The notes under the pieces: generated by a model
What the model was told of the DNA's origin: nothing
Seen by the model: the letters and a program-made list of their open reading frames with translations, nothing else
Database searches by the model: none
Origin: Naegleria gruberi
Taxonomy: Eukaryota
Length of the DNA stretch: 12,219 nt
Strand: one strand, 5' to 3'
NCBI GenBank assembly: GCA_000004985.1
Contig: GG739003.1
Position numbers and translations under genes: made by a program
Part shown: positions 8,640-12,174 of the stretch, in pieces
Numbering within the stretch: the first letter of the stretch is position 1
Layout of the letters: every line of letters begins with the position of its first letter

Positions 8640-8682
8640 AACAATGAGCCAAACAGCAGTAGTGGTGGAAATGAAATCTCTA

Positions 8683-8803
8683 CTCGTACGTTTTAATTTT
8701 CCTCAGCACATCCAAGCTGCGTGCGCACCAATTTTCCTCTTGATTTTCATTCAAATTCGAAAAATAGACCTCTCCATCAAATAATTTCAAAAAAAAACAA
8801 AAC
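8683..8803 (-). repeat. Copy B of the repeated intergenic element (inverted relative to copy A at 1-113), between 7TM gene stop and SDR gene start
   Basis: The reverse complement of 8683-8735 matches 61-113 at 52 of 53 positions. The reverse complement of 8776-8803 (gttttgtttttttttgaaattatttgatg) matches 1-26. The core contains the palindromes GTGCGCAC (8721-8728) and CGTACG (8685-8690). Confidence 0.8.
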
Positions 8804-9713: not shown

Positions 9714-9944
9714 TCATTTAAAAACTAATAATTTGTAAATAATAAACTAAAACTAAATTAATTTCCTAATTTCATTTGGATAGCTCTTCAAATTTTTATG
9801 GTATTAATGCCACAAAGCAAAACTGAGCCATATACGACTTGAATCCAAACAGATTAAATGAATTTTACAGTTATTCGAATCTAATTATATTAATAGTTGT
9901 GAAAGATCAAAGTTCATTATCGTTGTAAAAAAAACAAGAAAAAA

Positions 9945-10937
9945 ATGCTTCCAATTCAACTCTTCGGACCCACGTGCGTTTTTGTTTCATCAAATGATGA
10001 AATTTTTATCGCTGATTGCAATAATCATCGAATTAGAAAATTAAATAATCAGAAAATCATGACAGTAGCAGGGAATGGTGAATTGGGGTTTTCGAGTGAT
10101 GGTGAATTGGCAATTAATGCTAAATTAAATTATCCGAATGGTGTGTTTGTTGTAAAGGAGGAAGTATATATTGCAGATTATCATAATCATCGAATTAGAA
10201 AGGTTTCGAATAATGCATAATTGAAACGATTGCTGGAAATGGAGAAGGTGGATTTGAAGGAGATAATGGTCCAGCTAAATTATCCAACGAGTGTGTTTGT
10301 TTCAGAAAATGGAGAAGTTTATATTTCGGATTATCTGAATAATCGAGTTAGAAAGGTTTTACAAAACGGAAATATTGTAACAATAGCAGGAAATGGAAAA
10401 TTAGGATGTTCAGGAGATGGTGGTTTGGCAATTAATGCCGAGCTCAACTGTCCAATGAATGTATTTGTATTCAACGAAGAGGTATATATTACGGATTCAG
10501 CAAATCATCGTATTAGAAAGGTTTCGAAAAGTGGAATAATTGAAACGATAGCTGGAAATGGAAACGAAGGATTCAGTGGAGATGACGGATTGGCCACTCA
10601 GGCTCAACTCAATTGTCCAATGAGCACATTTGTAAACTCTAATGGAGAAATTTATATTACAGATTCTAATAATTTTAGAATTAGAAAGGTTCAAAGAAAT
10701 GGAATAATTAAAACAATAGCAGGAAATGGAAATGATGGATTTGAAGGAGATGGTAGCTCAGCAACAAATGCCCAACTCAATTATCCAATGCATGTTTTTG
10801 TTTCTTCCAACGATGAAATGTATATATCCGATAGTGGCAATAATGCCATTCGAAAGGTATCAAGGAATGGAATTATTGAAACAGTAGCAGGAGAAGGGCC
10901 TTATTCACAAGGATACAGTGGCGATGTTTCGTTTTGA
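9945..10937 (+). CDS. Bacterial-type NHL-repeat beta-propeller protein: six tandem 54-56-aa repeats (consensus …TIAGNGxxGFSGDGGLAxxAQLNxPxxVFVxxxGEIYIxDxxNHRIRKVxxNGII…); frame disrupted at ~10215-10285 (possible pseudogene or assembly error)
   Basis: ATG at 9945 (AAAAAAATG context), stop TGA at 10935-10937. Repeat period is 162-168 nt, judged from the recurring attagaaagg landmark at 10032, 10194, ~10347, 10512, 10680 and ~10848. There is a single in-frame TAA at 10218-10220. The conserved peptide IIETIAGNGEGGFEGDNGPA is encoded in the +2 frame between 10217 and ~10276, and reading then returns to the original frame. Confidence 0.6.
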
Positions 10938-11092
10938 ATTCATGAAACACTGTTTCTAACATTTTCCAATCAAAATGACCAAGTTCGAAATCAGTTGACT
11001 CAAAACTATTCTTTGTAACCTTCAATTTCAATTCTGATTGAATATCTCAGCGTTTTCCACACCCAAGTGGAATTTTCAACCTCAAAAAAAAA

Positions 11093-11110
11093 ATGAAAGA
11101 CATTACTATG
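11093..11110 (+). CDS. Hypothetical 6-codon first exon (MKDITM) of the TM2-domain gene, donor atg|gtacgtttc at 11111; would splice in phase 0 to acceptor at 11328/11329
   Basis: ATG at 11093 in a CAAAAAAAAAATG context. GTACGT follows the 6th codon. There is no AG dinucleotide anywhere between 11113 and 11238. The phase is compatible with the exon starting at 11329. This is pure inference from splice-site logic. Confidence 0.25.
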
Positions 11111-11133
11111 GTACGTTTCGCGAATTTGATTTT

Positions 11134-11144
11134 TTTCCCGCCAA
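11134..11144 (+). promoter_or_regulatory. Second copy of TTTCCCGCCAA (E2F-like), with inverted CCAAT box (attgg) at 11206-11210
   Basis: ttttTTCCCGCCAAcac read directly, sharing an 11-mer with 6980-6990. gtgATTGGttc lies 65 bp downstream. Confidence 0.3.
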
Positions 11145-11328
11145 CACTTTGGATGCTCCATTTACCCACTTTCATGAACCAAAAAATTACGCGCCGATTG
11201 TGATTGGTTCATCATCATCGTCATCACGAATATTATTTGTATTTATTAATTATCTTATTATTCAATGTTCTTGCATGTTCGGTTTATCATGTCATTATCT
11301 TACATGTTTTTAAATATTTCCAAAATAG

Positions 11329-12174
11329 GCGTATGTGCTGTGGGCACTTTGTTTCTTTGGTTTATTTGGTATTCATCGATTTTATTTGAATTCGTGGACG
11401 ATGGGTATTGTTTACTTGTTCACATTTGGATTGTGTGGAGTGGGACAGATATTTGACGTTTTGTTGATTCCTGGATTGGTTGCCCAGGAGAATGGAACTA
11501 GCTCAAATAATAATGGATTAGTGTTTGGTTTTGGAAATAATATGTTTTCTGGTGGCAATTATGTTAACTTTAATAATGCTCAGCCTTATCAAGTCTCGAA
11601 TGGAAATGCTGGCTATTCTCAATATTATGTGAATGATGGACAACAGCAACCTCAATCATATGTTCCACCTCAACAACAAGAGCAACAAGAGGGTGGTGAA
11701 TCGAATGAATATGTACCACCTCAGCGAAATTCTGGATTTACAATGTACATTAATGGTCAACCTGTTGATTTGTCTAATGGAGGAACAATTTATATGGATG
11801 GCTCAGGAGAAGCTCAATACTACGCCAATGATGATGATAACGATGATCAGCATTTCAATAGTGTTTTTGATAACATGAGAAGAGCTGAGGAGAATAGAAG
11901 ATTACATGATAGCATCCGTAGAACGAACGAATCAATTAACAGAAGTAACGAAATACATAGAGAAAATATTAGACGAATGAATGAAAATATCCATAGAACC
12001 AATGAGCAAAATCGCAGAACCAACGAGAATAACATGAGAATGCATCATCAAAACATGAACAGAATGCACGACAATATGAGAATGCATCAAAATATTCATA
12101 GCCAGAACATGCAAAGAATGCATCAACAAAATACTATGAATAATATCAATAGAATGAATACTTTCAGAAGATAA
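11329..12174 (+). CDS. TM2-domain protein exon: two TM helices flanking HRFYL motif (AYVLWALCFFGLFGIHRFYLNSWTMGIVYLFTFGLCGVGQIFDVLL), followed by ~230-aa N/Q-rich then R/N/M/H-rich repetitive tail; stop TAA 12172-12174
   Basis: G-x-HRFYL-G between two hydrophobic helices matches the TM2 domain signature (Pfam TM2, conserved DRF/HRF motif). An in-frame TAG at 11326-11328 immediately precedes the exon and coincides with an …aaaatag acceptor. The ORF-track 'M' at 11335 is actually GTG. The tail contains quasi-periodic N-x-x-R-x-x-[EN] and MRMH/NRMH units. Confidence 0.65.
   Translation, partial: AYVLWALCFFGLFGIHRFYLNSWTMGIVYLFTFGLCGVGQIFDVLLIPGLVAQENGTSSNNNGLVFGFGNNMFSGGNYVNFNNAQPYQVSNGNAGYSQYYVNDGQQQPQSYVPPQQQEQQEGGESNEYVPPQRNSGFTMYINGQPVDLSNGGTIYMDGSGEAQYYANDDDNDDQHFNSVFDNMRRAEENRRLHDSIRRTNESINRSNEIHRENIRRMNENIHRTNEQNRRTNENNMRMHHQNMNRMHDNMRMHQNIHSQNMQRMHQQNTMNNINRMNTFRR

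Follow-up and report, generated by a model that had tools for sequence, protein, structure and literature searches.

A frame-disrupted copy of an NHL-repeat propeller gene on a haplotype-like scaffold of Naegleria gruberi

Introduction

Six-bladed NHL propellers are known from the teneurin NHL domain, NHLRC2, SOQ1, TRIM-NHL proteins and PknD. The gene considered here shares with them six NHL units and similarity to the members with solved structures, but the Naegleria protein stands alone, without an accompanying domain, and the copy in the window is interrupted. The window is the whole stretch of DNA that was analysed, and it comprises the full length (12,219 bp) of an unplaced scaffold from Naegleria gruberi NEG-M.

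Heterozygous null alleles and young pseudogenes have indels that disrupt the frame and an early stop codon; the genome that carries them also has an intact, nearly identical counterpart, and they have hardly decayed further. The present locus resembles them in each of these respects. It also recalls compensated frameshift pairs, in which the combined length of two neighbouring indels is a multiple of three. In contrast to such pairs, the first shifted codon here is a TAA and no conserved product is translated from the shifted stretch, so that there is no compensation.

Naegleria has been described as a heterozygous diploid (PMC9928731). The scaffold is like a haplotig of such a genome in being small and unplaced, in carrying three collinear genes with approximately 99% protein identity to their counterparts, and in having variants that look selected. 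One variant of the window scaffold is shared with another isolate. A segmental duplication of very recent date would give the same picture as a haplotig. A disrupted NHL copy on a haplotig-like draft scaffold is of an ordinary kind and raises no new biological question; its interest lies mainly in the annotation.

The NHL-repeat gene and its reading frames

The gene comprises six repeat units, or blades, of 165-168 nt each (Table 1), which are only approximately 72-80% identical to one another. The AGNG anchors (the motif encoding IAGNG) are spaced at 164, 154, 165, 168 and 168 nt. The gene is the counterpart of an intact 335-aa protein from an environmental metagenome (P0122) and of EFC39022.1 (P0002) from the same genome, both of which map by tblastn to window positions 9945-10934. 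Translation from the ATG at 9945 gives an open reading frame of 9945-10220 and 91 aa, with ...HRIRKVSNNA as the last residues before the TAA, and this product covers blade 1 and most of blade 2. TAA is also the stop codon of the neighbouring short-chain dehydrogenase (SDR) and TM2 genes. Frame 0 is open anew from 10221, is NHL-like from (V)QLNYPTSVFV and ends at TGA 10935-10937. Both fragments match the NHL and teneurin-type NHL families of Pfam (53.2 and 67.1 bits), for which a gathering score of 20 bits is the cut-off for NHL-repeat membership. The DNA holds six units, but no uninterrupted six-blade polypeptide, owing to the TAA and the shifted segment that follows it.

Table 1. Features of the disrupted NHL-repeat locus, its neighbours and its intact counterparts
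Feature	Position	Strand	Basis or remark
513-aa membrane-protein gene, EFC35851.1	7007-8639	+	three exons; twin EFC39024.1
SDR, EFC35852.1	8856-9713	+	upstream, intact; twin EFC39023.1
Disrupted NHL-repeat gene	9945-10937	+	translations; Pfam NHL/TEN_NHL matches; repeat alignment; tblastn
Lesion 1	10214-10216	+	repeat-unit alignment; L001 alignment; P0002 and P0122 read NNGIIET here
Out-of-frame segment	10217-10275	+	+2-frame translation; L001 alignment
Premature TAA, made directly by lesion 1	10218-10220	+	ORF translation
Deposited model P0121 = EFC35853.1 / NAEGRDRAFT_76490, 223 aa	10266-10937	+	on window scaffold
Lesion 2, junction of 14-nt deletion	10275-10276	+	repeat-unit alignment; L001 alignment
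TM2-domain gene	11093-12174	+	downstream; intron 11111-11328 (GTACGT...AG)
P0002 = EFC39022.1 / NAEGRDRAFT_73266	304,373-bp scaffold		same-genome twin
P0122, 335 aa	ENA metagenome contig L001, 1,537 bp		uninterrupted orthologue

The intact metagenome protein consists of six NHL units of 55-56 aa and scores 104.6 bits against NHL (PF01436) and 130.5 bits against TEN_NHL (PF25021). Among solved structures it matches 9ifo_A and 9pt5_A, a teneurin-like protein, at E = 1e-86, followed by SOQ1 (3e-26), teneurin-2 (1e-21) and NHLRC2 (2e-17). Going by the intact counterparts, the ancestral gene is a 335-aa stand-alone six-bladed NHL beta-propeller. The best matches outside Naegleria are bacterial (Actinomycetota, Acidobacteriota and Bacteroidia), with 42-51% identity and E values down to 1e-158; the family may be of bacterial origin in Naegleria, or the matches may stem from consensus-like repeats. 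A second, distant NHL-repeat ORF lies at 1823-2530 (+), with a Pfam NHL match of E = 9e-23 and approximately 22% identity to P0002, and it is probably shortened by the N gaps that flank it (974-1654 and 2974-3717).

The two deletions

In the DNA alignment of repeat units one base is absent between 10214 and 10215, at the end of unit 1, and position 10216 is C in the window versus A in the metagenome contig L001; AAT GG(A/C) ATA has become AAT GCA TAA. Relative to L001 this may be a change of GGA-A to GC-A, that is, a deletion with an adjacent substitution at 10216. Alternatively, one G may have been lost from GGC, which was how the first-pass annotation had read the lesion; its 1-bp loss stands, with the lost G of GGC as one option beside the other.

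The out-of-frame segment encodes the repeat consensus in the +2 frame only, reading IIETIAGNGEGGFEGDNGPA from 10217, and over the 59 nt that separate the two lesions, DNA identity with the intact orthologue is 100%. Early in unit 2, a gap of 14 nt is seen against all four sister units as well as L001. It is a clean deletion with perfect flanks, in which AATTAATGCCAAAT of L001 is absent between window positions 10275 and 10276. Lesion 2 takes out residues I112-K115 plus 2 nt and restores frame 0, and both P0002 and P0122 read GPAINAKLNYP at this site. Simple slippage was considered for the 14-nt deletion and rejected, since the AATTA(A) direct repeats in the L001 sequence predict deletions of 11 nt or 16 nt and not the junction observed.

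The in-frame TAA inside a periodic NHL gene, the +2 placement of the consensus after it and the recovery of the original frame at LNYPTSVFV had all been noticed in the first-pass annotation, and translation agrees with it on each. The frame break by two lesions that it described is real in the sequence, but its dimensions have to be revised: the second lesion, given as about 5 nt at ~10277-10282, is 14 nt at 10275/10276; the net loss, given as 6 nt, is 1 + 14 = 15 nt (5 codons); and the intact product, given as 330 aa, is 335 aa. The net in-frame pair had also been taken to speak against random decay. This is a weak argument, since lesion 1 itself makes the TAA, and lesion 2 is therefore unable to rescue translation, whichever of the two came first. 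The in-frame sum is a coincidence, to be expected for about 1 in 3 pairs of indels, and carries no sign of selection or recoding.

Intact counterparts

With the conceptually repaired protein as query, N. gruberi P0002 was recovered at 96% identity. The 90% cluster of P0002 has three members, namely P0002 itself, the deposited window model P0121 and the metagenome protein P0122. The twin P0002 is unbroken across the lesion region, where it reads ...KVSNNGIIETIAGNGEGGFEGDNGPAINAKLNYPTSVFV... (longer stretch ...HRIRKVSNNGIIETIAGNGEGGFEGDNGPAINAKLNYPTSVFV...), and P0122 is likewise uninterrupted at both lesion sites and intact throughout. Comparison with relatives had been proposed as a check on the frame break, and both the NEG-M twin and the metagenome orthologue prove to be intact across it. 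Contig L001 aligns to window 9874-11332 and includes the start of the downstream TM2 gene, which indicates that it is orthologous. In the coding region the window differs from L001 by ten substitutions, by the missing G at 10214/10215 (with C versus A at 10216) and by the missing AATTAATGCCAAAT. The gaps of 1 nt and 14 nt disrupt the frame relative to L001, and the disruption is also evident against the P0002 protein. An intact twin together with an intact, independent orthologue argues that the ancestral state was an uninterrupted 335-aa propeller.

The P0002 model itself ends ...FRIRKVLKVE at 258 aa (at approximately window position 10690), where the window and L001 continue with QRNGIIKT... 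and run 80 residues further. At this C-terminus the copy on the main scaffold may have an assembly gap, a mis-modelled intron or a lesion of its own.

The scaffold and its neighbouring genes

EFC35851, EFC35852 and EFC35853 of the window are collinear with EFC39024, EFC39023 and EFC39022 of the 304,373-bp scaffold and are 99% identical to them at the protein level. The SDR is identical to its twin EFC39023.1 (P0123) at 282 of 285 positions, the only changes being D/E, D/E and T/A. The 513-aa membrane protein, the introns of which begin at ~8170 and ~8286 with GTAAGT and GTATGT, is identical to EFC39024.1 at 511 of 514 positions (P0243 versus P0244), the differences being two exchanges of I and V and the in-frame indel of a single codon. 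Over this ~2.4 kb of neighbouring coding sequence there are no frameshifts relative to the twins. The SDR variant D74, which distinguishes the window from its twin, recurs in an environmental strain (P0124). That strain is represented by metagenome contig L002, to which the window is 97.3% identical over 3.9 kb; of the 32 substitutions in coding sequence, third codon positions account for 22, and eight of the ten indels are intergenic.

The conservative differences in the neighbouring genes, together with a D74 variant shared with an independent sample, suggest that the scaffold is genuine and not built from junk reads. It is best described as the other haplotype of part of the 304-kb scaffold, or else as a copy that arose from that part by very recent duplication, and the relation is putatively allelic rather than paralogous. 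The NHL-TM2 synteny is retained in L001. An exact look-up of the reconstructed TM2 product, by which the collinearity might be extended downstream, gave no match in the protein collection.

The 12.2-kb scaffold duplicates part of the 304-kb scaffold, and the counts of the NHL family and of the two neighbouring genes are consequently inflated by one each.

Null allele or artefact

The NHL copy is probably a real null allele, or a pseudogene copy of a dispensable member of a gene family. As proposed, two deletions 60 nt apart, of 1 nt (10214/10215) and 14 nt (10275/10276), would have hit a six-bladed NHL propeller gene. Translation from ATG 9945 would stop after 91 residues, short of two blades, leaving a propeller unable to close. 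The second deletion would bring the total to 15 nt and return the downstream repeats to frame without functional effect. Function at the lesion region would presumably come from the intact twin EFC39022.1 and from paralogues in the family. One argument for a real mutation comes from the scaffold, which behaves as a real second haplotype and so moves the balance away from assembly error. The lesions probably lie in the DNA of the organism and not just in the assembly. If they do, they add a single minor case of gene loss confined to one allele of a heterozygous diploid protist.

The window copy has two private non-synonymous changes, P2L and G54E, at positions where the twin and the environmental orthologue agree with each other, against none in the twin over 254 aa; these are very small numbers. 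Relaxed constraint on the window copy is a possible explanation.

A sequencing, cloning or consensus artefact is the less probable but still weighty alternative. It holds that the second haplotype is intact and that the gaps arose in a low-coverage part of a small haplotig scaffold, possibly from a base-calling error or compression in the case of the single G, and from a clone deletion or consensus mis-alignment in the case of the 14 nt. The scaffold is indeed small and unplaced, with two N gaps, and the N. gruberi genome is reportedly a draft Sanger assembly, which makes local coverage by a single read possible. Moreover, the private changes all fall within ~330 nt (two substitutions, the deletion with its adjacent mismatch, and the 14-nt deletion), a pattern that a poor read or damaged clone could also give. 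Lesion 1, whether read as GG shortened to G beside a C or as an indel adjoining a mismatch, is of a kind that compression or poor base calls typically produce, and the perfect match to the intact orthologue between the lesions is also in keeping with an error.

The broken allele was not found in any independent assembly, either by exact-product look-ups or by a scan of JGI metagenomes. Exact look-ups of the 91-aa ORF and the 232-aa downstream ORF returned no record, nor did look-ups of the SDR, P0002 and P0121 products for independent assemblies; for the JGI scan a 20-mer from beside lesion 2 was used, and the four contigs recovered have no more than a chance 20-22-mer in common with the window.

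Against an artefact, the neighbouring coding sequence is free of frameshifts, the divergence pattern of the scaffold is shaped by selection, and one of its variants is common to an independent sample. A clean 14-nt deletion is not of the base-calling type, and two unrelated artefacts would be needed 60 nt apart. Mis-assembly of repeat units was rejected, as the errors amount to 1 and 14 nt and not to whole units of 165-168 nt, and as identity between units is only ~72-80%. The first-pass annotation had named sequencing or assembly error, or a recent inactivating mutation, as the likely causes; these are the only two serious explanations, but its placing of error first does not sit well with a scaffold that looks like a haplotype. 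Whether null allele or artefact, the sequence as written could not encode the propeller.

Under a narrower version of the null-allele reading, both deletions are real and were made together, by a single complex mutation, in one haplotype of a laboratory strain that has long been clonal. This narrower reading is improbable. If it is true, the amoeba, which is heterozygous and propagates mostly without sex, would here show gene death specific to one allele, and a genome-wide census of haplotig-specific null alleles could then gauge rates of independent haplotype decay.

Shortened-protein and rescue readings

The deposited EFC35853.1 starts MVQLNYPTSVFV at ATG 10266 and is a truncated, four-blade model, that start being the way in which the annotators handled the break. 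EFC35853.1 / NAEGRDRAFT_76490 (223 aa) should therefore be corrected in the annotation as a truncated model of a disrupted copy. The model also raises the idea that the locus still makes a functional shortened protein, either a 223-aa four-blade product from ATG 10266, or a propeller put together from two fragments of 91 aa and ~223 aa. Downstream, the ORF stays open for 223-238 codons, has been accepted as a gene model and contains repeats without further lesions. ATG 10266, however, lies within the out-of-frame stretch, without a promoter or 5' region of its own, and is fortuitous, since the intact allele reads GAT AAT GGT there in the other frame. Judging from the matched solved NHL propellers, a four-blade fragment would also be without six-blade NHL closure, and an absence of further decay is what is expected of a recent lesion. 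A functional shortened protein is for these reasons very unlikely. The exotic variant in which the 91-aa and 223-aa pieces would both be made and reassemble as a split propeller is, considered jointly with the reading of one mutational event, also rated as improbable.

Programmed rescue, by ribosomal frameshifts of -1 at ~10217 and +1 at ~10275 or by a 72-nt in-frame GT..AG intron at 10203-10274, is scarcely credible: the lesion sizes do sum to a multiple of three, and GT at 10203 and AG at 10273-10274 do enclose exactly 72 nt, but a frameshift would not be conserved, the twin and the orthologue being in a single frame, while the candidate intron starts GTTTCG where the three real window introns start GTAAGT, GTATGT and GTACGT, matches, at 100% identity, what is coding sequence in the intact orthologue, and would on splicing drop a whole beta-strand region. 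Recoding and splicing were both rejected, as there is no slippery X XXY YYZ heptamer in frame before the TAA (10150-10222), no host-type donor GTA[ACT]GT in 10100-10320, and the one GT..AG interval that is in frame and takes in both lesions corresponds to coding sequence of the orthologue.

Other features of the window

Several further differences were seen between the window and the environmental contigs. At window position 8103, TTTT corresponds to TTT in L002 (~2137). The shorter run shifts the frame of the L002 gene orthologous to that of the 513-aa membrane protein, so that its ORF stops at 374 aa; the cause is either a true mutation of that strain or a mistake in the assembly of the metagenome. 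A mosaic pattern seems to be present among the SDR copies. P0123 and P0125 are SDR paralogues on the 304-kb scaffold, P0125 being the second, and the C-terminus of the environmental SDR P0124 (L002 2889-3746), LLNQYGEPASVTKSHTDNIRE..., equals P0125, while the remainder resembles P0123. This pattern suggests gene conversion between tandem SDR paralogues. L002 departs from the window after 9824 and may be the orthologue of the other SDR locus.

The ORF at 4653-5459 (-) has no Pfam match and contains imperfect internal direct repeats at 4962-5147, with offsets of ~69 and ~123 nt and 86-89% identity. The region between the NHL and TM2 genes (window 10938-11092) has ~103 nt fewer than in the environmental strain of L001, and the TM2 intron of the window has 19 extra nt at 11199-11217 relative to L001, so that there is large indel polymorphism in non-coding DNA between the two. 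Finally, an element of ~60 bp occurs at 61-120 and, in inverted orientation and with 95% identity, at 8675-8738 upstream of the SDR. It is kept in the environmental strain (L002 2709-2834) and could be a small dispersed repeat or a shared regulatory element.
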